DNA from: Escherichia phage ST0
Strand: one strand, 5' to 3'
DNA: 64,000 nt
Sequence record: MF044457
Positions 1 to 47,311 of this stretch are shown here, in pieces. Position 1 is the first letter of the stretch; each line of letters opens with the position of its first letter. The notes under the pieces are model-generated. The model did not search any database, had not been told where the DNA came from, and worked only from the letters and a program-made list of their open reading frames with translations. The translations under genes were made by a program, and so were the position numbers.

Positions 1-1
1 A

Positions 2-415
2 GAAGATGTAGTTCGACGTTGTAAGGTTGCGGTCTTTGCAGAGTATGTAGTAGCAAATTGGCTAGACGGATATGTTAATAAAGGTATTGAAGACGTAGAA
101 GACCCGTACACGTATGCATGGGACGTGTTAGCCCATCCCAAGTATTGTGGAATTCGTGTAGAAGTCAAGACACACCAGATAGATTCTAAATGGATTTCTG
201 TTACCACAGGATACAGTGGTGATTATCCAGGTGGCAACGGAATCAACATAGGGCCCTTCTTGAACCATCGAGTCGCAGATTGCATTATTATATTAGATGT
301 CAAAGAAACCTCACCTGACGTCTTCTCTTATTCTATAAAGTTCGTGGGAGACCATGAAGACCTAAAGAAAATCGTCCGCAAGAGCAACTACAACGGGTGG
401 TATCTTCAACTTTAA
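2..415 (+). CDS. hypothetical protein, 5' end outside window; possible PD-(D/E)xK nuclease-like core
   Basis: Frame is open from the window edge to the stop at 413-415; the pattern D...E-V-K (WDVLAHPK...IRVEVKT) resembles a restriction-endonuclease-like core; position is the ndd/denB-side accessory region of T4-like genomes. Confidence 0.4.
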   Translation, partial: EDVVRRCKVAVFAEYVVANWLDGYVNKGIEDVEDPYTYAWDVLAHPKYCGIRVEVKTHQIDSKWISVTTGYSGDYPGGNGINIGPFLNHRVADCIIILDVKETSPDVFSYSIKFVGDHEDLKKIVRKSNYNGWYLQL

Positions 416-747: not shown

Positions 748-939
748 GCTCTAAAATGTGGATCGGAATATGGTTGCTTAGTATCCCTATGATTTGTATA
801 GTATTTTCAATTGTATTGAGGTACTTATGAAAAATGCACTTATTATTGTACTAAGAACAATTTGTGATACGGGTTTTTACATCGCATGTTCGTTCACTGG
901 ATCATGGTTGGCTTTAACATATTTTAATGTAATTTAATT

Positions 940-977
940 GTTTACAACAAGGTAGGATTATGGTATAGTAGTCCTAC
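940..977 (+). promoter_or_regulatory. early promoter with dyad symmetry (PeSL-like)
   Basis: GTTTAC 940-945, TATAGT -10, inverted repeat GTAGGA/TCCTAC flanking the -10. Confidence 0.55.
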
Positions 978-997
978 TGAAACATGAGGAACACAAA

Positions 998-1198
998 ATG
1001 GCTAAGCTTTTTAAAGATGTTGAAATTGGTGAAAAATTTGTTCTGAATAATGGTCAGCAGCTTATTCGTGTAGCTTCTATCGCCGGACAAACTCATAACT
1101 GTATCGCCCCAACGTGTTGGACTCGATTCTTTATTGAAGATGACACTGAATGTTTAACTGTTGAAGAGCTTTTTGAACGTTCTGATATAGCCGAATAA
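998..1198 (+). CDS. hypothetical protein (66 aa)
   Basis: ORF with SD GAGGAA upstream; occupies an ndd.x-type position. Confidence 0.5.
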   Translation: MAKLFKDVEIGEKFVLNNGQQLIRVASIAGQTHNCIAPTCWTRFFIEDDTECLTVEELFERSDIAE

Positions 1199-1200
1199 AA

Positions 1201-1274: not shown

Positions 1275-1721
1275 ATGTCCAAATATTTAACTCGTAAAGA
1301 CCTTCTGGCAGTTGGCGGTGAAGTTGTTGCAGTAGTTCGTAATGGCGAATACGGTTCTGAAGTTTCTAAAGAGTTTCGTTCTCGTGAAGGTTTTTACTTC
1401 TTTGTTAAAGGTTCATCTGACTGGCGTCAAGTTGCAGCACGATTCTTTGTAGGACGTCAACGTTCTAAACAAGGGTTGGATGCAATTCTTTCTCACATTC
1501 GTCAAGGCCGTTCGCAACTAGCCCGTACTATGGGCACTAACAATATTGAATATGATGTAATCTTTGTTGCAGCTAAGAACATGAAACCCCTGACTACTGG
1601 TTATGGTAAAGGACAATTGGCTCTGGCATTCACTCGCAATCATACATCAGAATATCAAACACTCACTGAAATGAACCGTCTTCTGGCAGATAATTTCAAA
1701 TTCGTTCTGCAGAGTTACTAA
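1275..1721 (+). CDS. ndd: nucleoid disruption protein Ndd
   Basis: 148 aa; recalled T4 Ndd similarity ([64 protein letters not shown]). Confidence 0.9.
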
Positions 1722-2064: not shown

Positions 2065-3390
2065 ATGCAATTGAATTCTCGTAATCTAAAAAGTATTATT
2101 GATAACGAAGCCTTAGCATATGCGATGTACACCGTTGAAAACCGTGCAATCCCAAACATGATTGATGGATTTAAGCCGGTTCAACGTTTTGTGGTTCATC
2201 GTGCGTTAGATTTGGCTCGTGGTAATAAAGAAAAATTTCATAAACTTGCGTCAATTGCAGGAGGTGTTGCAGATTTAGGTTATCATCATGGCGAATCTTC
2301 TGCACAAGATGCAGGTGCATTGATGGCTAACACATGGAACAACAACTATCCGTTGTTAGATGGCCAAGGCAACTTTGGTTCTAGAACAGTCCAAAAAGCT
2401 GCAGCATCTCGTTATATTTTTGCTCGTGTAAGTAAAAATTTCTATAACGTATATAAAGATACTGAATATGCTCCAGCTCATGAAGATAAAGAACACATTC
2501 CGCCAAAATTCTATCTTCCTATTATTCCGACAGTTCTTTTGAATGGCGTCTCCGGTATTGCAACCGGTTACGCAACAAATATTCTGCCTCATAGTTTTAA
2601 ATCAGTCAAAAAGGCTGTATTACAAGCTCTTCAAGGTAAAAATGTCACTAAGCCAAAAGTTGAATTCCCGGAATTCCGTGGTGAAGTACATGAAGTTGAT
2701 GGGCGTTATGAGATTCACGGAACATATAAGTTCACATCTCGCACTCAAATGCAGATAACTGAAATCCCATATAAATTCGACCGTGAAACGTATGTGAGTA
2801 AGGTTCTTGACCCGTTGGAAGACAAAGGTCTAATCTCATGGGAAGATGATTGTGGTGAACACGGCTTTGGGTTTAAGGTGAAGTTCCGTAAAGAGTACTC
2901 GCTTCCTGATGATGAAGAGCTACGTCATGAAAAAATCATGAAAGATTTTAGTCTCATCGAACGTCGTTCACAAAACATCACAGTGATTAATGAAAAGGGT
3001 AAATTAGCAGTCTACGATAACGTAGTGGACTTAATCAAAGATTTTGTTGAAGTCCGTAAGACTTACGTTCAGAAACGTATTGACAACAAAATCCTTGAAT
3101 CTGAAAAAGCGTTTAAACTTGCTTTTGCTAAGGCACACTTCATCAAAAAAGTTATTACAGGTGAAATTGTGATTCAGGGCAAGACTCGTAAAGCTTTGAC
3201 TGAAGAGCTAGCACAAATCGAAATGTATAAAGAACATGTCGATAAACTGGTAGGTCTTAACATCTTCCATATCACTTCCGACGAAGCACGTAAACTGGCA
3301 GAAGAAGCTAAAGCTAAGAAAGAAGAAAATGAGTATTGGAAGTCTACCGATGTTGTGACAGAGTACACTAAAGACTTGGAGGCACTTTGA
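2065..3390 (+). CDS. 52: DNA topoisomerase II medium subunit gp52
   Basis: 441 aa; recalled T4 gp52 similarity throughout, length matches T4 (442 aa). Confidence 0.95.
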   Translation: MQLNSRNLKSIIDNEALAYAMYTVENRAIPNMIDGFKPVQRFVVHRALDLARGNKEKFHKLASIAGGVADLGYHHGESSAQDAGALMANTWNNNYPLLDGQGNFGSRTVQKAAASRYIFARVSKNFYNVYKDTEYAPAHEDKEHIPPKFYLPIIPTVLLNGVSGIATGYATNILPHSFKSVKKAVLQALQGKNVTKPKVEFPEFRGEVHEVDGRYEIHGTYKFTSRTQMQITEIPYKFDRETYVSKVLDPLEDKGLISWEDDCGEHGFGFKVKFRKEYSLPDDEELRHEKIMKDFSLIERRSQNITVINEKGKLAVYDNVVDLIKDFVEVRKTYVQKRIDNKILESEKAFKLAFAKAHFIKKVITGEIVIQGKTRKALTEELAQIEMYKEHVDKLVGLNIFHITSDEARKLAEEAKAKKEENEYWKSTDVVTEYTKDLEAL

Positions 3391-6676: not shown

Positions 6677-7336
6677 TTATTTAGCCCTTCCTAGTATTCG
6701 GACCGCTTGGTTGCATATAGCCGCTAAGCGGTCTTCCTCAAGTATATTACTCCCCTTATACCAATACATCGTCACAGTTCCGGCATAGATGTTATCCAAA
6801 TTAAAGTATGGACAACTATACATATAAGAAAGTTCGGCAGTCTTAGATTTTGTAGGCAAAAATGCAAATTCTGATTTAGATGAGAAATGACGGCCACTTA
6901 AATGAATTATATATTCATTGGCCGTTTTATCCACCGGGAATCCGCCAAGGGACTTTTCAGAAATTGTGCTAGGTAGTTTGCCTTCATAAGCTATAAGGTC
7001 GACGAAATAATTTAAGTTTTTAGGTCTGAAAGAATACACAGCACTAAAATCCGCACCAGATGAGATATGAACTATTTGCAGTTGTTCTAGAGCCGCAGAT
7101 TCAAAACGTAAAGCTCGTTCTTTTTGGATTATTTCAGTATAAGTATCATACTTAGCTCTTACATAATAATCCAGCAAAATACTTCCTTTGTACCATATTA
7201 GTGCCATTAGGAACAAAAGAATAATTACCGCTACTCGGGACATTAAAACCTTTCCAGTAGCGTTATCTTTGAAAATACGATCTAGCAACCCAAATAGAAT
7301 ATCACTAAGTGAAAATGATACTTTTGGTGTTGCCAT
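6677..7336 (-). CDS. t: holin T
   Basis: 219 aa; recalled T4 holin similarity (FSAVYSFRPKNLNYFVD.IAYEGKLPSTISEKSLGG.PVDKT, YMYSCPYFNLDNIYAGT.TMYW), N-terminal transmembrane segment. Confidence 0.95.
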   Translation of the reverse strand: MATPKVSFSLSDILFGLLDRIFKDNATGKVLMSRVAVIILLFLMALIWYKGSILLDYYVRAKYDTYTEIIQKERALRFESAALEQLQIVHISSGADFSAVYSFRPKNLNYFVDLIAYEGKLPSTISEKSLGGFPVDKTANEYIIHLSGRHFSSKSEFAFLPTKSKTAELSYMYSCPYFNLDNIYAGTVTMYWYKGSNILEEDRLAAICNQAVRILGRAK

Positions 7337-7926: not shown

Positions 7927-10900
7927 TTATGCTAAACGAACGATATAGTTAAAAGCAACGTTTTTAACTGTGTTTTCTGTATTACCTGTACTATTTACAG
8001 TGATAGTATGACCGTGCGAACCAATAGCTACTGAATGAGTGTGAGCGCCAATACCTACGGTGTGAGTATGAGCGCCAATACCTACCGTATGCGCATGGTT
8101 GCCTGTGGTGCTAGTAGTACCAGACCAACTATGGGTGTGGGCACCATCATTTGATGTTTTACCGACCTTAGTTGCTAAAGTCGAACCAGTGATACCTGAG
8201 TTAAGTTTAGCGTATGCGTTTGCACTTATCGTAGTAACCCCGTCTCTAAACAAATCGTCTGCCCATGCAGCAGTGACCTGTGGACCTGAACGCGTGTGTT
8301 GGTGAGCACCAGCGGAACTAGTATTACCACTCACTGTATGGCTATGGTTGCCAGTGGTATTACTGGTCTTAGTACCATAATCAAAGCTTGAAGTCGTTTT
8401 GCTACCGTAATCAAAACTTGACGTATTTTTAGTACCCAAATCTGTGTTTGATGCACTTGCACTATGGCTATGTGACTTAACACCGTCTGCTTCTGTACTT
8501 AATACAGCACGACCAGATGGTTTACCCTTGATAGTTTGACCACGCATATCAGGCAGAGTGCCGGAAGGATACACTGCAGCTAACTTAGGATACAAGCCAG
8601 CATCAAATGTTTGACCTTCCATTATGGCATAGCCTTCAGGAGGTGTATCAGTAGGCCAAGGAATCGGAGCACCAATCGGGTAACTCGAGACAATATCCGT
8701 CTTAAGGTTATTTATTGTGGTATTCAAGTTAGCAAAATTACCAGAACCACCAGTGATATTACCATCAGTACCAATACGAACATTACCAGCGCCTAATTTA
8801 CCAGGAGAATAAAAATCACCGTTTTTATTAAATTCCCATCCAAGATCCTTTATAACAGCACCAGTAGAAACGCCGTCACCACCTTCGTGATAATGAACTC
8901 TAAAGTTACCACCATTAATTAAAGTACCAATAGAATAGCAACTATTATTTTGAACGTATCTTTGTTTCACAATAGGAACATAAGTGCTTGTATCGGTTCT
9001 ATCTATATTCATGTAGAACGGAGCACGAACGTTTTCATTATTTTGTGAAGCAAAAGAACCAGCTCCAGCAGGTCGTGCAGTATCAGTACATTCAGCGTCG
9101 ATATATGCCGATTGTCCTAATTGCATACGGTAATTAGGAGAAATGCGACTATGGCTAGTTATAACAACAAGTTTATTATCATTATCAACGGTCACCATAT
9201 TACCGCCAGCACCGTCATCACCTAACGTAACAGAATGGCGCATTTGAACCATACCATTATTAAGACTAATACTTAGTGGACGGAGATTACTTATTCCACC
9301 ACTTTCACCTGCATCTTTAAGTGTAGGTATAATATGCAAAGACGCTTCAGAACGACGGAAAATAGCTCCATATTCAGCATTGTAAATACGGAAAGCATCT
9401 GCGGTATTACCGATTTTAACTTGACCGGTAATAGAACCGCCACCGGATAAAACAAGCCCGTTATCCATAGTAACTTGTCCGGATAATGCACTTAATCCAT
9501 TAACTCTAAGACTTCCATCGGTGATAATGCTCCCTCTAGCATTAACTTGTCCATTGAACTGGGTTACAACAGGTCCCACAGTTTCTGAATCGGTTGGAGC
9601 TATGCGCTGAGAATAAAAATAATATCCCTGCCCGTCAGCTACTTCAAAAACTGTTTCACGAGTACGATCGCCGGATGCGTTAAATGAATTACCCCATGCT
9701 TTAACAGTTACGTAGCTTTTATTCTGCCCAGCACGAGTACCACCTTCCCACAAAATTTGCTTAGTGCCATCAACTGTAGTAGTTGGAGCGAATGTTAGCC
9801 CGGCAGTAGAATTATTAGCTGCTAAATATACACCATTATATATTGAAAGCTGCTTAGTGGATGTAATACCGCCATCAGCATAAAACATCACATTATTTGC
9901 ACCGGTTACCAATTTCAAAATACCCGGGTTAATTTCCATACCTTGTTGGGTATTGATATTCATCTGACCTGTACCACGGAAATAATGGGAAAATTTACCG
10001 CCAGAATTATATCCAATGTGGGTTTGACCATCACCTGCATTGTTTGTATCAGCCTGGGTTTGAACCGATAAAAGCGCGGCGTTGGTTCCAGGCATTGTCC
10101 AGGTTCCGCCTTGGTCTTCTGAGCGTCCAAATAATGCTTTACGAGTACTACGGAAACTATCAGGAGTAATAGAAGCAACAGAATTCCAATTACCTACTAA
10201 ATCATAAACGCCTTGCTTAATATATTTTAAACCAGTTGCAGCATCGCCCAAAGCAATATATCTTTCTCCCATTGGAGTAGGAGAGCCATAGTTGTTAGTA
10301 TTTTCGTCAGCAGTAATTGTGCCAATAGCAAGTGAACGACGTAATACCATTGCGCCATCATTACGAAGACCCATTAATTTAGTAGTAAGTGTATTTCCGG
10401 TCCACCAAGAAATTTCATCGTTCTTACCAGTTTGAGCTGAAGCGATTTCATGGTAAATAGTTCCGCCTGATTTAGCTCGAACTTTACGAAGATAGTTTAT
10501 ACCATTTTCTTCACCTGTTCCAGGATAAACATATTGAACTAATGATTGTGAATCATATTGTCCGAATGCCTTTGTATCTAAAATAATATTTTTAGTATTA
10601 ATCTGAGGTGAAGTAATATTTCCGAGAGCTGCAATATTTCCAGATGTAGTTATACTACCTCCTGATACTGCTAAACCTCCGCCGTCAACAGTAAATCCGC
10701 CGTCGCGTCGAAACGTCCAATATTTCGAATCGCCAGATTCATTGATATAATGAATCTTCAACGAACCTTCAGAAACTAAAGTACCTAATGAAAAAGTTCC
10801 ATCTTTAAAGCGTTGTTTAATTATAGGATTATATTCCGAAGTAGCGGTTGATGCGGAAATATCCATGAAAATAGGGGCTTTTGCCGTGTGTTGACCTGCC

Positions 10901-32154: not shown

Positions 32155-33147
32155 ATGTTACCTGTCATCAGAAAACTTATTTCTCCAAAAGAACTGGCTG
32201 AGATTATTCCTTTGTCGGAAGCTTACGCATCACAAGTGGCTTCTCATCGCGAACAAGTTAATTCGATTATGAACGGTGAAGACCCACGCAAACTTATTGT
32301 TGTAGGTCCTTGTTCAATTCATGACCCTATTGCTGCTGTTGAATACGGCAAACGTCTGGCTGAACTTCAAACTCGTCTTCCTAATGTTCTGTTAGTGATG
32401 CGCGTTTATTTTGAAAAGCCTCGAACTACCGTAGGTTGGAAAGGTCTTGTAAATGATCCATATCTTGACGGAAGTTTTGATATGAACCACGGTCTTATAG
32501 TTGCACGAACATTGTGTCGTAAACTTCTACGTATGGGACTTCCATTAGCAACTGAAGTATTAGACCCATTCACGATTAAGTATCTTTCTGGTATTTTCTC
32601 ATGGGTTGCTATTGGCGCCCGTACGACTGAAAGTCAGACACATCGTGAAATTGCTTCAGGTCTACCGATGTGCGTAGGCTTCAAGAACGCAACCAATGGT
32701 TCTATTAAAGTAGCTACAGACGCGATGTATAGTGCCGCCTGGCCTCATCGGTATATGGGTATGGACGTCGATGGTACTGTAGGCATTGTTGAAGCTGAAG
32801 GTAATCAGAATACGCATATCGTATTGCGTGGCGGGACTAACGGCCCGAACTATCATTCTTCTGATATTCAAGAAGCTTCTAACAAAGCAAGTGCATTAGG
32901 TCTGAATCATTATGTAATGGTTGACTGTAGCCATGCAAACGCTGATGGGTATTATAGCAATCAAATTGGTATTGGTAAAAATTTAGCAGCTAATGATTTG
33001 GTCAAAGGAATTATGATAGAATCATTCCTACATGAAGGAAATCAAAAAATTTCTGATAATATGTCCTATGGCGTTTCCGTTACCGATGCGTGCATCAGTT
33101 GGGAACAAACTAAAGAGCTGTTAACTTATATTAATAAGGTTCAATAA
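32155..33147 (+). CDS. 3-deoxy-D-arabino-heptulosonate-7-phosphate (DAHP) synthase, class I (AroF/AroG/AroH family)
   Basis: 330 aa; conserved blocks VVGPCSIHDP, MRVYFEKPRTTVGWKGL.NDP, GARTTESQ.HRE.ASGL, VGFKN, HI.LRGG, DCSHAN, S.TDACI.W; SD AAGGA upstream; phage-like AT-rich codon usage. Confidence 0.88.
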   Translation: MLPVIRKLISPKELAEIIPLSEAYASQVASHREQVNSIMNGEDPRKLIVVGPCSIHDPIAAVEYGKRLAELQTRLPNVLLVMRVYFEKPRTTVGWKGLVNDPYLDGSFDMNHGLIVARTLCRKLLRMGLPLATEVLDPFTIKYLSGIFSWVAIGARTTESQTHREIASGLPMCVGFKNATNGSIKVATDAMYSAAWPHRYMGMDVDGTVGIVEAEGNQNTHIVLRGGTNGPNYHSSDIQEASNKASALGLNHYVMVDCSHANADGYYSNQIGIGKNLAANDLVKGIMIESFLHEGNQKISDNMSYGVSVTDACISWEQTKELLTYINKVQ

Positions 33148-33728
33148 TGAAAGCTAGCACATATCTTCAAATTGCTTATTTGATTTCTCAAGAATCAAAA
33201 TGTTGTTCATGGAAAGTTGGTGCCGTCATTGAAAAAGATGGACGCATTATCTCTACTGGATATAATGGCTCACCCGCAGGTGGCGTTAACTGTTGTGAAC
33301 ATGCATCCGAAAATGGTTGGTTGAAGAATAAACCAAGCCCGGTCATCGTTGCTGGACATAAAGAAGGCACTACAGCATTTGGACGGGCAGATAATTTTGT
33401 TTTGGCTAAAGAACATCGGGCCGCTCATAGTGCATGGTCTGCTAATAATGAAATCCATGCAGAATTGAATGCAATTTTGTTTGCAGCTCGTAAAGGTAAT
33501 TCTATTGAAGGTGCTACGTTATATACTACGCTTTCTCCATGTCCTGATTGCACTAAAGCTATTACGCAGTCAGGTATTAAAAAGGTTGTATACGCAGAAT
33601 TATACGATCGATCTCCTGAAAATTGGGCAGACATTCTAAAACAAGCCGGTATTGAAGTAATTCAGTACTCTCGTAATAATCTTCGTTCTCTGAATTGGGA
33701 ACAAATCCGAAACTTTTGTGGTGAATAA
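33147..33728 (+). CDS. cd: dCMP deaminase
   Basis: 193 aa as in T4; zinc-binding deaminase motifs (HAE...PCPDC); recalled T4 Cd similarity. Confidence 0.95.
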   Translation: MKASTYLQIAYLISQESKCCSWKVGAVIEKDGRIISTGYNGSPAGGVNCCEHASENGWLKNKPSPVIVAGHKEGTTAFGRADNFVLAKEHRAAHSAWSANNEIHAELNAILFAARKGNSIEGATLYTTLSPCPDCTKAITQSGIKKVVYAELYDRSPENWADILKQAGIEVIQYSRNNLRSLNWEQIRNFCGE

Positions 33729-34026
33729 TATGATTTTAACTGAACAAGAAACTATGGTTCTTCGTGAACGTATTAAAACTATTCTGTCTGTAGGCGTTCA
33801 TTGTGTTGTATTTGAAAAGGCTAACGGCGAGGTACGCACTATGTTTGCTTCGCGCGATGAACTTGAAGTCAAATATGAAAATAACAATCCAGCAACAGAA
33901 GTTCGTTATGAACCTCGTGAATCAGTTCGAGCATTCGATACCAAGTTAGGCCAGTGGCGTTCTTTCCGCCTTGATAAAGTAATTTCGGTTGATGGTACTC
34001 CGGCGGAACGTTTGCTTCTTATGTAA
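33718..34026 (+). CDS. hypothetical protein (102 aa), 31.x position
   Basis: ORF between cd and gene 31. Confidence 0.45.
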   Translation: MVNNMILTEQETMVLRERIKTILSVGVHCVVFEKANGEVRTMFASRDELEVKYENNNPATEVRYEPRESVRAFDTKLGQWRSFRLDKVISVDGTPAERLLLM

Positions 34027-34083: not shown

Positions 34084-34416
34084 ATGTCTGAAGTACAACT
34101 CCCAATTCGTGCTGTTGGTGAATATGTCATTCTGGTTTCTGAACCCGCTCAAGCAGGTGATGAAGAAGTTACAGAATCAGGACTTGTGATTGGTAAACGT
34201 GTTCAAGGTGAAGTTCCTGAACTATGTGTAGTTCATTCTGTAGGTCCTGATGTTCCTGAAGGTTTTGTTGAAGTCGGTGATTTGACTCCACTACCAGTTG
34301 GACAAATTCGAAATGTTCCACATCCATTTGTGGCTTTGGGACTTAAACAACCTAAAGAAATTAAACAGAAATTCGTAACATGCCACTATAAAGCTATTCC
34401 ATGTCTTTATAAGTGA
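34084..34416 (+). CDS. 31: co-chaperonin gp31 (GroES analogue for capsid protein folding)
   Basis: 110 aa; recalled near-identity to T4 gp31 over essentially the whole length. Confidence 0.96.
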
Positions 34417-34424
34417 TATAAATA
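34417..34424 (+). promoter_or_regulatory. late promoter (TATAAATA) upstream of rIII
   Basis: Exact TATAAATA on the plus strand directly after the gene 31 stop. Confidence 0.5.
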
Positions 34425-34540: not shown

Positions 34541-34789
34541 ATGATTAAACAATTACAACACGCTCTTGAACTGCAACGCAACGCATGGAATAACGGTCAC
34601 GAAAACTACGGTGCGTCAATTGATGTTGAAGCCGAAGCACTGGAAATCCTGCGTTATTTCAAACACCTGAATCCTGCTCAGGCTACTCTGGCTTCTGAAC
34701 TGGAAGCTAAAGATGAATTGAAATATGCTAAGCCTTTGGCTTCTGCAGCACGCAAAGCAGTTCGTCATTTTGTTATTACTTTGAAATAA
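34541..34789 (+). CDS. rIII: lysis inhibition accessory protein rIII
   Basis: 82 aa; recalled near-identity to T4 rIII. Confidence 0.95.
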   Translation: MIKQLQHALELQRNAWNNGHENYGASIDVEAEALEILRYFKHLNPAQATLASELEAKDELKYAKPLASAARKAVRHFVITLK

Positions 34790-34952
34790 TTGCTATCATG
34801 CGTCAGCAAAAGGTTAGCTGTGTAAGTCATGGTAGGTATGATGACGGGTTTATGGTTATCCTGTCGTTAAATACCCAAAACCTATGTTCCCGTTGAGGGC
34901 TTGCGCAGGCAATGTCAATAAGTCCTGCATTTTCATTTAAAGAGAATTTATA

Positions 34953-35132
34953 ATGGCAAAACAAGCTAAAGCAAAGAAAGCAGTTGAAAAGAAAGTTGAT
35001 GGTACCTCTAAACGCGCTGGATACAAGCGTGGGTCGAACTCTCGTATTAATCAAACAGTTGAGAAGATCATGCGCAGAGCACGTGCAGTTCTTCGAGATG
35101 ATGCTTCTCGATTTGGAAAGGTTGTTGCATAA
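34953..35132 (+). CDS. small highly basic protein (59 aa)
   Basis: ORF MAKQAKAKKAVEKK...; below the 60-aa track threshold; ends directly before a strong terminator; preceded by a 163-bp non-coding stretch. Confidence 0.4.
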   Translation: MAKQAKAKKAVEKKVDGTSKRAGYKRGSNSRINQTVEKIMRRARAVLRDDASRFGKVVA

Positions 35133-35137
35133 TTTTA

Positions 35138-35159
35138 GGGAGACTTCGGTCTCCCTTTT
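35138..35159 (+). terminator. rho-independent terminator
   Basis: GGGAGAC-TTCG-GTCTCCC hairpin followed by TTTT (same hairpin sequence as the gene 32 terminator). Confidence 0.75.
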
Positions 35160-35262: not shown

Positions 35263-35631
35263 ATGAAAATCAATCTGAACTCATACATCAAATGTAAAGA
35301 CCACGATGGTTATAAAGCTATCGAAATTAAAGAATTCCAGTGGATGTTATACAAAGAGCAATTTGAGTTCGTAGGTTGTATGACCCCTGAAGGTCCTTCT
35401 GATGATTTCTCTTGGAAAATTGTGTTAGCAAACTTTTTCACAGGTGACACGTACGAATTAAAAACTATTATTACCGGTAAAATTCGTTCAGAAACATATG
35501 TTGACGAAGAAACTGGTTACTCTGAAGATGTTACATGGTATCAAAATGGACGCATTACAGCAGATAACCTGATCGAAAAAATGAAAGCCAAAGGTGTTTT
35601 AAATTTAGACAATTGGATTAAAGTTGCATAA
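35263..35631 (+). CDS. hypothetical protein (122 aa)
   Basis: ORF with SD GGAGAA; 30.x-type island. Confidence 0.5.
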   Translation: MKINLNSYIKCKDHDGYKAIEIKEFQWMLYKEQFEFVGCMTPEGPSDDFSWKIVLANFFTGDTYELKTIITGKIRSETYVDEETGYSEDVTWYQNGRITADNLIEKMKAKGVLNLDNWIKVA

Positions 35632-46781: not shown

Positions 46782-47311
46782 TCAAGCAATCCAATAATTT
46801 CTGCTATACCCTTAATAGGGCCATTAGGGCCCGGAATAGCAATAGTTGTCGAAAGGTCTTCTGCCCATTTGATTACAAAAGCAGGCATCTCAAGGAAAGA
46901 AATTTCTTTCTCTTCGTCATTAACTTTTATTAAGCAATTTGATAGCATTTCACTGATTGTAGCGAATTGTTCAAATTTGCCTGGGGGTCTAAAATAAAAA
47001 GTATTACCTTGAAATTGGAATTCTGTTCGTTGGCATACATAGACGTCATCTAGTTTATAAGTGAATCCATCTTTTTCAACTTCAGACTTAAGTTTGTTAT
47101 TAAATTCCAATATGTGTAGACATGCAAAATCAAAATCTGCCGGACTCATATTTTTACAAATAGAATCAGCTAAGATTTTCATGTTTTCGTCAGGACCTTT
47201 AACGTCCTTTAAAAGATTATAATGTTTGAGCCCTAATTTAGGAATCATTACCTTTTTATTAGACTGTGGTAGAATTATTTTCTTTAGAGGTAGAATCAGA
47301 TTTAAGTTCAT
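46778..47311 (-). CDS. 28: baseplate hub distal subunit gp28
   Basis: 177 aa as in T4; the start overlaps the 3' end of gene 27 by 53 nt, so the exact start is uncertain. Confidence 0.85.

Follow-up and report, generated by a model that had tools for sequence, protein, structure and literature searches.

A covarying pseudoknot in the modular RNA spacer between rIII and 30.9 of T-even phages

Bacteriophage T4 is the best-studied lytic phage, and several of the structured RNAs that most resemble the element described here come from T-even transcripts. The gene 32 leader of T4, T2, and RB69 carries an H-type pseudoknot, conserved among the T-evens, in an untranslated stretch ahead of a gene whose product is of the nucleic-acid-binding type; it serves in autoregulation by gp32, and gp43 has a hairpin operator (PMC3014915). 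The gene 32 knot lies at a fixed distance and is followed by an unstructured A/U-rich lattice that extends to the ribosome binding site (RBS). In the T4 genes e, soc, 49, and I-TevI, a local helix lies over the Shine-Dalgarno (SD) sequence on transcripts that start upstream (PMC3014915), and a late promoter within that hairpin frees the RBS. The T4 tRNA precursor also yields the stable RNAs rnaC and rnaD (species 1 and 2), small structured molecules cotranscribed with the phage tRNAs whose role is unknown. Pistol RNAs (RF02679; env25, PDB 5K7C) are phage associated (PMC4604425) and have a P1 hairpin whose loop, with UU at its start, forms a pseudoknot of 5 to 8 bp with a more 3' strand that ends in AA; env25 reads CGUGG-UUAGGG-CCACG-UUAAAUAG... 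(PMC7373991). The riboswitch aptamers preQ1-I, SAM-II/V, and fluoride are compact; an A-rich strand crosses a stem in them, and the covarying helices are separated by unpaired bases that are conserved.

The locus studied here lies in a 64-kb window (64,000 nucleotides of Escherichia phage ST0, record MF044457) belonging to an RB69-like (Mosigvirus) T-even phage. Gene rIII, so labeled in the annotation of more than 100 close relatives, ends at 34789 and the next conserved open reading frame (ORF), of 59 amino acids, starts at 34953, so that the gap between them measures 163 nt (Table 1). The original prediction, made from the letters of the window, had singled out 34790 to 34952 as a noncoding stretch that was unusually long and less AT-rich than other gaps, and its coordinates and content were correct: in a crude gene map with a median gap of 10.5 nt and few gaps of at least 150 nt, this gap has a G+C content of 40.5% versus a mean of 34.5% in the 43 others. 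A long gap on that map at 46782 to 47258 is an artefact, as baseplate hub genes cover that interval. The basic ORF that had been noted downstream is gene 30.9, and a terminator does follow it. Differences between 30.9 and 13 homologues are distributed 147/113/261 over codon positions 1, 2, and 3, and the gene is therefore coding. Its product belongs to PHROG 1427 by a full-length profile match and by the synteny 31-rIII-30.9-30.8/30.7; the family is tiny and confined to T4-like phages, and no Pfam, PDB, or remote cellular homologue of gp30.9 was found. An AlphaFold model of low confidence (pLDDT 67) has three helices, including a long one. The longer versions of 30.9 (72 aa in RB14, 97 aa in UniProt) are annotation artefacts, with stops and 1-nt indels upstream of the ATG.

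Table 1. Features of the rIII-30.9 region, in window coordinates.
Feature	Position	Strand	Sequence or pairing	Remarks
Late promoter, T4-type	34417-34424		TATAAATA	Upstream of rIII; from sequence, annotated by homology
rIII	34541-34789	+		ORF, 82 aa; lysis-inhibition accessory protein; stop codon opens the gap
Module B, outer stem	34793-34835	+	CTATCATG 34793-34800 / CATGGTAG 34828-34835	8 bp
Module B, inner part			CAGC 34804-34807 / GCTG 34817-34820	Internal loop, 4-bp stem, conserved 9-nt loop AAAAGGTTA
PK, 5' flank	34836-34842	+	GTATGAT	Conserved
PK, P1 hairpin	34843-34865	+	GACGGG 34843-34848 / CCTGTC 34860-34865	Loop TTTATGGTTAT 34849-34859
PK, linker	34866-34879	+	GTTAAATACCCAAA	Single stranded; consensus GUUAAAUAyCCAAAA
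PK, 3' strand	34880-34886	+	ACCTAT + G34886	Pairs with loop GGT 34854-34856 and TA 34851-34852; T34853 bulged
Module H	34887-34905	+	TTCCC-GTTGA-GGG (CCC 34889-34891 / GGG 34897-34899)	Hairpin, then conserved CTTGCG 34900-34905
Module V	34905-34928	+	GCAGG 34905-34909 / CCTGC 34924-34928	14-nt loop CAATGTCAATAAGT
SD hairpin (weak, predicted)	34929-34947	+	ATTTTC 34929-34934 / GAGAAT 34942-34947	Covers the 30.9 SD (GAG 34942-34944)
30.9	34953-35132	+		59-aa basic Lys/Arg-rich protein; phrog_1427, E 2.4e-31
Intrinsic terminator	35137-35158	+	GGGAGAC-TTCG-GTCTCCC + TTTT	End of the 31-rIII-30.9 unit

Because the gap shows frame-breaking 1-nt indels relative to T4 and RB14, and every frame meets a stop codon before the 30.9 ATG, it is noncoding. 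A 32-aa ORF at 34798 to 34896 was rejected, having no family match and a start inside a module (B) that is absent from T4. A mini-ORF over P1, AUGAUGACG...UAA, differs in frame and length among relatives (9, 19, 35, and 2 codons) and is therefore no leader peptide. The stretch from the pseudoknot to the ATG is 97% identical to that of T4 and 93% identical to that of IME08, and it is better conserved than the flanking genes rIII (88 to 91%) and 30.9 (77 to 92%). The single-sequence fold energy of the gap is unexceptional for either strand (+, z = -1.59; -, z = -0.42), and the support for a structure beyond chance is thus comparative rather than energetic.

On the + strand the gap folds, 5' to 3', into hairpin B, an H-type pseudoknot (PK), hairpin H, stem V, and a weak hairpin at the RBS. 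PK, an RNA motif of phages that spans about 55 nt and is autonomous, is built on a 6- to 7-bp stem (P1) whose loop pairs with a strand 14 to 15 nt downstream, across a conserved A-rich linker. P1 is the dyad that the original prediction had named, and it is backed by covariation: across genera it takes the forms GAC..GG/CC..GTC, GTC..GG/CC..GAC, GTT..GG/CC..AAC, GTGG/CCAC, and GTCGTAG/CTAGAC, with 4 of 6 pairs altered on both sides and 85% of alignment cells paired in a MAFFT alignment (5 of 6 pairs in a model-fitted one). The pairs between loop and tail likewise differ by genus (TTAGTAGT/ACTACTAA, GTTGG/CCAAC, CAAGG/CCTTG, GTGAG/CTCAC, GGTAG/CTACT), and half of the eight pseudoknot pairs are altered on both sides in the MAFFT alignment. 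For P1 and the pseudoknot together, over 26 variants in that unbiased alignment, 78.4% of cells are paired versus 66.0% in shuffles, and covariation is 0.363 versus 0.168 when shuffled (0/500), with a slid control maximum of 0.171. Duplexes between loop and tail average -5.1 kcal/mol for cognate partners versus -2.6 kcal/mol for noncognate ones, and five of seven loop types lie at -6.9 to -9.1 kcal/mol; no type in the family pairs more weakly than the one shared by the window and T4 (5 bp with a bulge, -2.2 kcal/mol). The linker is nearly invariant, whereas the helices on either side covary. The 5' flank reads GTATGATG, GAATGATG, or GTATGTTG in the T-evens and GCATGATG in unrelated contigs. 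RNAalifold proposed that the GUAUGAUG flank pairs with the linker; this was rejected because variation in the flank is not compensated in the linker. A pairing of the P1 5' strand with CCCGUU of H is specific to the window and unconserved.

The other modules differ in how much their variation reveals. Among six sequence variants of B, 93.1% of cells are paired versus 82.4% in shuffles, 5 of 12 pairs are altered on both sides, and covariation is 0.350 versus 0.139 shuffled (0/500; slid control maximum, 0.106); B occurs in Mosigvirus, Dhakavirus, and some others, and T4 does not have it. Module H (consensus GUWCCC-NUNGA-GGGCUUGcG) is kept in sequence in most genera, precedes PK in L035, L036, and L039, and is lacking in PM2. 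Because it is nearly invariant its pairs are little informative; compensated variants are CCUC/GAGG (L027) and GCC/GGC (L294). The position of V is occupied in other genera by GAACUGG/CCAGUUC, GGGAGC/GCUCCC (with a 58-nt insert), GAGAG/CUCUC, GGUGGAG/CUCCAC, and GGGAAC/GUUCC. In a model-fitted alignment both members of all five modeled pairs change, and pairing holds in 98.4% of cells. For P1, H, and V combined, 93.8% of cells are paired versus 72.1%, with 12 of 14 pairs altered on both sides, in an alignment that was itself fitted to the modeled structure. V has a competitor in the T4 type, the alternative pairing GGGCUU/AAGUCC. The T4 type alone has AUUUUCAUUU after V; other genera have no U run, and an attenuator or terminator role for V was therefore rejected. 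The SD-covering hairpin is predicted independently in most relatives despite differing sequence (UUUUC/GAGAA in the T4 type, UUCUCC...GGAAGA with a C.A mismatch in others). V and this hairpin always lie directly 5' of the 30.9 start codon, a constant placement that makes them leader-like.

The check proposed with the original prediction, folding with covariation across related phages, thus came out in its favor, since compensatory changes in P1, PK, V, and B exceed both shuffled and slid controls. Its suggestion that the gap may encode either a structured small RNA or a leader regulating the basic protein is supported insofar as the gap encodes a conserved, covarying + strand RNA with leader-like elements abutting the 30.9 ATG; the structured RNA stands, and neither a bond between PK and 30.9 nor a single small RNA gene does. 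The same changes largely refute a reading of the conservation as a DNA-level signal (a promoter, replication origin, or recombination joint) or as a decayed gene, which we regard as scarcely probable. The authors of the ATK47 record annotated an "ori type 2 repeat" immediately before 30.9, the H-like half-sites around module A would suit recombination joints, and UniProt formerly listed a 97-aa "11.1 kDa" ORF here. However, pairing is preserved by compensation in four helices, G.U pairs suit one strand only (G34846-T34862 in P1 is compatible with the + strand alone), and 1-nt indels break the frames. As to promoters, a sigma-70 scan gave 11 sites versus 8.2 +/- 2.9 expected, which is the level of chance, the late promoter sequence TATAAATA was not found in 34790 to 34952, and no T4 middle promoters are mapped between P31 and P30.2 (PMC2988021).

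PK recurs in more than a thousand T4-like phages, among them T4 itself, and in the tRNA clusters of unrelated uncultured phages. It was found in every Tevenvirinae rIII-30.9 spacer retrieved; these spacers are 146 to 416 nt long and are mosaics of shuffled structured modules, of which B is the extra, interchangeable one in the window and A, D, F, G, and Z are found elsewhere. Placement of PK is free: its distance from the rIII stop ranges from 5 to 250 nt and that to the ATG from about 70 to about 300 nt, and in Jiaodavirus a 135-nt module separates it from H. The copies in tRNA arrays (L062, L064, L065, and L077) run on the tRNA strand; in L065, PK occupies the 58-nt spacer between tRNA-Asp and tRNA-Pro, and its 3' strand abuts the tRNA 5' end. 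In other uncultured phages PK stands without 30.9 in stand-alone noncoding loci that have their own terminator, and distant 30.9 homologues without PK exist as well (L296 and L012, each with its own promoter). The variable distance to the ATG and the occurrence of each without the other show PK to be independent of 30.9. What the region represents is one example of modular RNA domains that are shuffled as a set, and not a single small RNA gene. Outside the T-evens, L201 and its relatives, which are among the stand-alone loci, have a perfect 7-bp pseudoknot, and in several examples the loop-tail pairing is imperfect. Among 596 Gb of cellular genomes, 70 hits to the PK pattern were at chance level and none was convincing with the model.

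Existing collections did not name the element. Rfam 15 gave no match over the whole window at gathering score and, at E up to 10 on 901-nt and 171-nt segments, only terminator fragments and miRNA/snoRNA noise, the partial matches landing on terminator hairpins only; 11 related loci had no Rfam match in the spacer. ARAGORN reported no tRNA or tmRNA genes in the window and no cloverleaf at the element. A literature search found no description of it; the paper of Driukas and Nivinskas (2003, Biologija) on rIII/30.9 expression lay outside its scope.

The only strong terminator of the unit lies 3' of 30.9, and the late promoter lies upstream of rIII. The terminator, with a 7-bp stem, a UUCG loop, and UUUU, has the hallmarks of an intrinsic terminator and is annotated as such in SA79RD and ATK47; a simple scan left it unlisted because that scan demands five T in eight. 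All genera have an equivalent hairpin with a GTTTAC early-promoter box after it, and in T4 the 30.9 RNA is of the early class (PMC9697503 supplement). Tentatively, and as part of one explanation that includes a role in processing or stability, we propose that transcription runs through the gap, which would form an untranslated stretch within the gene 31-rIII-30.9 mRNA. Embedded in that message, PK would be an RNA domain that probably serves processing or stability, and a leader that damps translation would come after it. Along the gap RNA, B, PK, H, V, and the SD hairpin would each fold on their own, and PK, probably with H, may be recognized in its folded form by a factor of the host or the phage. 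Judged by its context, it could act as "punctuation" within the mRNA, setting apart the terminal segment of structured RNA, 30.9, and terminator and shielding the 5' side of that segment; such a role fits the other habitat of PK, the spacers within precursor arrays of phage tRNAs. The actual leader of 30.9 would consist of V and the SD hairpin, and the swappable extra modules may keep the long untranslated stretch compact. The SD hairpin resembles those of e, soc, 49, and I-TevI, although it is much weaker and no internal late promoter is visible at it. However, the high degree to which H and the unpaired bases of linker and loop are conserved in sequence counts against this explanation, since it suggests a function more specific than that of a generic obstacle, such as ligand binding, catalysis, or recognition by a specific protein. 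The weak pseudoknot of the window and T4 type, the unexceptional single-sequence fold, the weakness of the SD hairpin, and the imperfect loop-tail pairing in several examples outside the T-evens weigh against it too.

Alternatively, PK and its neighbors may form a trans-acting noncoding RNA, cut from or carried by the mRNA, that titrates a host or phage factor while 30.9 is a mere neighbor. We consider this unlikely. Its presence without 30.9 in tRNA clusters and in noncoding loci with their own terminator, its free position, its conserved unpaired nucleotides, and the other elaborate domains that share the spacer (for example, module D) would all be in keeping with such an RNA, as would the precedent of rnaC and rnaD, which, like the PK copies in tRNA arrays, are small structured RNAs made with phage tRNAs. 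One candidate target, proposed because PK also resides in tRNA arrays, is a tRNA-directed enzyme or a tRNA-targeting defense nuclease. However, no promoter or terminator was found bracketing PK in the T-evens, no PK was found in the T4 tRNA region, and rnaC and rnaD contain no PK motif; the window copy itself lies in an mRNA rather than a tRNA precursor.

The likeness to pistol is partial. The two share a P1 loop that opens with UU and forms a pseudoknot with a strand whose last bases are AA (with only 5 bp and a bulge in the window copy), an identical C-GUUAAAUA after P1 (GUUAAAUA at 34866 to 34873 versus ...CCACGUUAAAUAG... in env25, which is one pistol sequence and not the family consensus), purines just 5' of the pseudoknot 3' strand, a similar spacing (14 to 15 nt versus 16 nt), and a phage habitat. 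By contrast, a 3-nt segment of PK (CCC/UCC/UAC/ACC/UUC/GUC) has no covarying partner at a consistent downstream place that would form P2; in the place of P3 with its 2-nt G-U junction come H and the conserved CUUGCG, with no P2 strand, and PM2, L035, and L039 have a different hairpin than H after PK. The base following the 3' strand is G, A, or U by genus, so that there is no conserved equivalent of G40. P1 is longer and has an extra bulge, its loop has 3 to 4 additional bases, and the Rfam Pistol model gives no match at E up to 10 over 171 nt. With P2, the P3/G-U junction, G40, and an Rfam match all lacking, PK was not assigned to the pistol family. That PK is nevertheless the core of a pistol-related self-cleaving ribozyme, cutting the mRNA or a tRNA precursor next to the pseudoknot and freeing the downstream RNA with a 5'-OH end, appears very improbable for the same reasons, even though its abutment on a tRNA 5' end in L065 would suit such a cut. 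The shared features do make a cleavage assay of PK worthwhile.

The T-even precedents of gp32 autoregulation through a leader pseudoknot and of the gp43 hairpin operator (PMC3014915) raise the question of whether the region is an operator or riboswitch for 30.9, with gp30.9 binding PK or H and repressing itself or with a ligand altering access to the SD. Like the gene 32 element, PK is an H-type knot, conserved among the T-evens, in an untranslated stretch upstream of a gene for a protein of the nucleic-acid-binding type; gp30.9 is rich in Arg and Lys and has a long helix in its model, PK and 30.9 occur together in all Tevenvirinae sampled, H is a small sequence-conserved hairpin of the kind used as protein operators, and the conserved unpaired pseudoknot bases, between covarying helices and with an A-rich strand crossing the stem, recall the riboswitch aptamers, as does the compact size of PK. 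We nonetheless judge this possibility distinctly improbable. PK has no sequence similarity to the gene 32 knot, occurs in phages without 30.9, and varies by more than 200 nt in its distance from the RBS, with whole modules between; the intervening RNA is structured and provides no unstructured A/U-rich lattice for binding. That PK and 30.9 are separable counts against an obligate pairing of gp30.9 with PK. In contrast to the pseudoknotted riboswitches, the PK 3' strand contains neither an SD nor a terminator strand and thus no overlapping expression platform, its contexts (rIII/30.9, tRNA arrays, and stand-alone loci) are not those of metabolic genes, and no Rfam riboswitch matched.

A broader view, which we put forward as possible but doubtful, is that PK represents a new class of phage RNAs that have their own activity and that the rIII-30.9 spacer of the T-evens, including T4, is an unrecognized locus gathering folded RNA domains (PK, D, and A) shuffled by recombination. 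One possibility for that activity is a pistol-related catalyst punctuating mRNAs and tRNA precursors, or a decoy in tRNA arrays against host tRNA-directed defenses. Whichever explanation holds, the unannotated spacer of T4 and about a thousand relatives contains a second covariation-supported pseudoknot, and its presence both in T4 and in unrelated tRNA arrays offers a concrete and cheap target for work on phage RNA processing, mRNA stability, and counterdefense. The neighboring domains suggest that further undescribed RNA folds exist at the locus; module D (135 nt), for example, has 39 pairs, 10 of them compensated, and a covarying kissing loop. As a minor observation, H-like half-sites flank module A, a hint of recombination joints.

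The spacer of 163 nucleotides between rIII and gene 30.9 is, as the original prediction held, longer and less AT-rich than usual: it has 40.5% G+C against a mean of 34.5% in 43 other gaps taken from a crude gene map, whose median length is about 10 nt. It is noncoding, with stops in all frames and single-base indels in T4 and RB14 relative to the window. The basic 59-amino-acid open reading frame after it is a real coding gene, matching PHROG 1427 and differing from 13 homologs mostly at third codon positions (147, 113, and 261 differences at positions 1, 2, and 3), and it does end at a strong terminator (GGGAGAC-UUCG-GUCUCCC-UUUU). By BLAST, the region belongs to Mosigvirus (RB69-like T-even phages), with 97 to 99% identity to many isolates. 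A long spacer here, of 146 to 416 nt, was found in every Tevenvirinae genus sampled. Over the 117 nt leading up to the 30.9 start codon, identity is 97% to T4 and 93% to Dhakavirus IME08, compared with 88 to 91% for rIII and 77 to 92% for 30.9. Judged from these identities, the gap is under selection.

Local gene names and order were assigned by homology (see the table). A late promoter box precedes rIII; late transcription should therefore also cover rIII, 30.9, and the structured spacer between them. The middle promoters mapped in this part of T4 are P31 and P30.2, with none in the gap (PMC2988021), a sigma-70 promoter scan gave no excess over chance level, and the sole strong terminator lies 3' of 30.9; the gap is therefore untranslated RNA internal to the 31-rIII-30.9 message. 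T4 omics data class the 30.9 RNA as "early" and leave the gp30.9 protein unclassified (PMC9697503 supplement). An early-promoter GTTTAC box follows the terminator in every retrieved spacer with its flank in frame. The "30.8" gene beyond does not align to T4 30.8 and shares 85% identity with its counterpart in Dhakavirus IME08, which suggests, from sequence, that a cassette was replaced immediately 3' of the conserved terminator and early promoter.

Features of the rIII-30.9 region in the window and of related loci
Feature	Coordinates	Strand	Remarks
DAHP synthase	32155-33147	+	330 aa; AroG-like, shikimate pathway; directly upstream of cd; annotated thus in close relatives
cd	33147-33728	+	by homology
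31.1	33718-34026	+	by homology
Gene 31	34084-34416	+	by homology
T4-type late promoter box	34417-34424	+	TATAAATA; immediately 3' of gene 31 stop codon, before rIII
rIII	34541-34789	+	by homology; followed by the 163-nt gap
B			43-nt hairpin
PK			H-type pseudoknot; stem P1 with 11-nt loop, which pairs with ACCUAU 14 nt downstream across linker GUUAAAUAyCCAAAA
H			small sequence-conserved hairpin, then CUUGCG
V			stem, variable in sequence and length
SD hairpin			weak; covers 30.9 Shine-Dalgarno sequence
Alternative helix GGGCUU/AAGUCC	34897-34902/34920-34925		within 34897-34927
Gene 30.9	34953-35132	+	59 aa; followed by terminator, 30.8, 30.7
"30.8"	35263-35631		122 aa
ATK47 (L002) "ori type 2 repeat"	2163-2172		about window 34933-34942
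L065 PK	6797-6851	-	exactly fills 58-nt spacer, tRNA-Asp to tRNA-Pro
L062 PK	9138-9191	-	in L062 and relatives, about 95 nt upstream of tRNA-Pro
L064 PK	2099-2145	-	tRNA array
L077 PK	1358-1411	+	tRNA array
Stand-alone PK locus, L201	about 1-330		also L232, L268, L285; L191, L280
Module A, T4 (L003)	1075-1200		also L008, L014
Module A, ATK47 (L002)	1889-2015
Module D, PG7 (L010)	about 865-1000		also L005, L006, L011, L014, L294

Comparative analysis showed that the spacer carries a conserved, modular RNA structure on the + strand, the core of which is an autonomous pseudoknot. When about 30 distinct spacers were compared, the 163 nt of the window's copy could be divided into B, PK, H, V, and the SD hairpin, five elements in all. 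The PK linker is nearly invariant, and the dyad GACGGG/CCTGTC pointed out originally is the PK stem P1, which is supported by covariation. When 26 distinct PK modules were aligned with plain MAFFT, 78.4% of P1 and PK cells were paired versus 66.0% in column-shuffled controls, covariation scored 0.363 versus 0.168 in shuffles (reached in 0 of 500) and at most 0.171 when partners were slid by 1 to 3 columns, and 8 of the 14 pairs had changes on both sides. Loop-tail duplexes, compared alignment-free, averaged −5.1 kcal/mol for cognate and −2.6 kcal/mol for noncognate partners; cognate values were −6.9 to −9.1 kcal/mol for five of seven loop types, and the weakest pairing was that of the type shared by the window and T4 (−2.2 kcal/mol for 5 bp and a bulged U). 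With R1, a covariance model of PK, H, and V, 34 distinct sequences gave 93.8% paired cells versus 72.1% in shuffles and 12 of 14 compensated pairs (5 of 5 in V), counts that come from an alignment fitted to the model. Module B had 93.1% paired cells versus 82.4%, with 5 of 12 pairs compensated among six sequences. The H counts are uninformative because H is nearly invariant; compensated variants do occur in L027 (CCUC/GAGG) and L294 (GCC/GGC). A weak SD hairpin is predicted for most relatives, in two unrelated sequence solutions. By folding energy alone, the window's copy of the spacer is unexceptional (z = −1.59). Several G.U pairs fit the + strand only, and a DNA-level signal or gene remnant as the origin of these patterns is scarcely credible. 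The reading as a structured RNA or a regulatory leader is supported by this conserved, covarying structure and by the constant position of V and the SD hairpin against the 30.9 start codon.

Across T-even relatives, the rIII-30.9 spacer is a mosaic and can be described as a gathering place for structured RNA modules. All Tevenvirinae spacers retrieved contain PK. In T4, a 125-nt module, A, takes the place of B, and ATK47 has both; a 135-nt module, D, is carried by Karam-, Kanagawa-, Moon-, Jiaoda-, and Gaprivervirus, and the small hairpins F, G, and Z are present in some spacers and missing in others. Module order also varies, with D between PK and H in Jiaodavirus and H before PK in three loci (L035, L036, and L039). 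Module D makes a convincing RNA domain by itself: 403 phage records contain it, unannotated and once per genome, at >90% identity across genera, RNAalifold gave 39 pairs with 10 compensated, and it combines a GNRA-type hairpin with a covarying loop-loop contact (CGAUGG/CCAUCG). It had no Rfam match and is not found in the window. Module A, of roughly 125 nt with nested helices and likewise absent from the window, begins with GAGGAGC and ends with GTACCTCTTGA; since these ends resemble the two halves of H in swapped order, H-like sequences may act as recombination joints for module shuffling.

PK is not confined to this locus. R2, a PK-only covariance model, had a single match in the 64-kb window (34836-34888, 70.9 bits). 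Copies outside rIII-30.9 were sought with a degenerate pattern scan and filtered by R2 or a P1-pairing test; such copies occur within the tRNA arrays of contigs from uncultured phages other than T-evens, in the same orientation as the tRNAs, with tRNA-Pro(UGG) nearby in three of the four. Others lie in long noncoding loci of metagenome contigs, each ending in its own terminator, and include four with a perfect 7-bp knot, UCUAUGU/ACAUAGA (L201, L232, L268, and L285), and the further stand-alone loci L191, L280, and L213. Across 596 Gb of genomes from bacteria and archaea, the pattern was at chance level, with no convincing match. Stand-alone loci span roughly 300 nt with PK at the center and further long-range helices (ACCCCUAU...AUAGGGGU); in L280 and L191 the knot is followed by GUACCC, as in T-evens. 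That PK is a trans-acting RNA domain or a decoy, a reading on which these loci bear, is somewhat unlikely. Conversely, P0074 (L296) and PspYZU05 (L012) have 30.9 homologs with their own promoter and no PK, and the T4-like contig L294 retains D, F, PK, H, and V beside a roughly 50%-identical homolog. As PK occurs without 30.9 and 30.9 without PK, the two are separable; an operator or riboswitch for 30.9 is improbable.

The closest known architecture is that of the pistol ribozyme. Like env25 pistol (CGUGG-UUAGGG-CCACG-UUAAAUAG...; PMC7373991), PK has UU at the start of its P1 loop, AA at the end of the strand with which that loop pairs, an identical C-GUUAAAUA linker after P1, and similar spacing. 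Unlike pistol, it has no P2, no P3 with a 2-nt G-U junction, and no invariant G40 (PMC4604425), and the Rfam pistol model did not match it; PK is therefore not filed as pistol, and a pistol-like ribozyme is very improbable. Within T-evens, the functional analog is the gene 32 leader pseudoknot, which differs from PK in its fixed placement, the unstructured lattice after it, and its strict link to its own gene. No description of PK was found in the literature searched, and it is a candidate new RNA motif, one that T4 itself carries.

We hypothesize that PK, perhaps with H, is recognized in its folded form and serves as "punctuation" for RNA processing or stability. Such a role would explain its free position within the spacer, its occurrence between tRNAs in precursor transcripts, and its place before a terminal mRNA segment with a strong terminator at the end. 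V and the SD hairpin would be the real leader, damping 30.9 translation; an SD-covering leader of this kind is a familiar T4 device (PMC3014915). Taken whole, punctuation by PK plus this leader is the explanation we favor, though tentatively, as a serious possibility that falls short of being probable. In ATK47, the depositors marked 10 nt just upstream of 30.9 as an "ori type 2 repeat"; these nucleotides overlap the SD-hairpin loop, and no evidence of a replication origin was found at this site. Another helix, GGGCUU/AAGUCC, of T4/Mosigvirus type, competes with both H and V; it gives the minimum-energy fold of T4, SA79RD, and UPEC07, is absent from other genera, and could, on these predicted folds, form a two-state switch.
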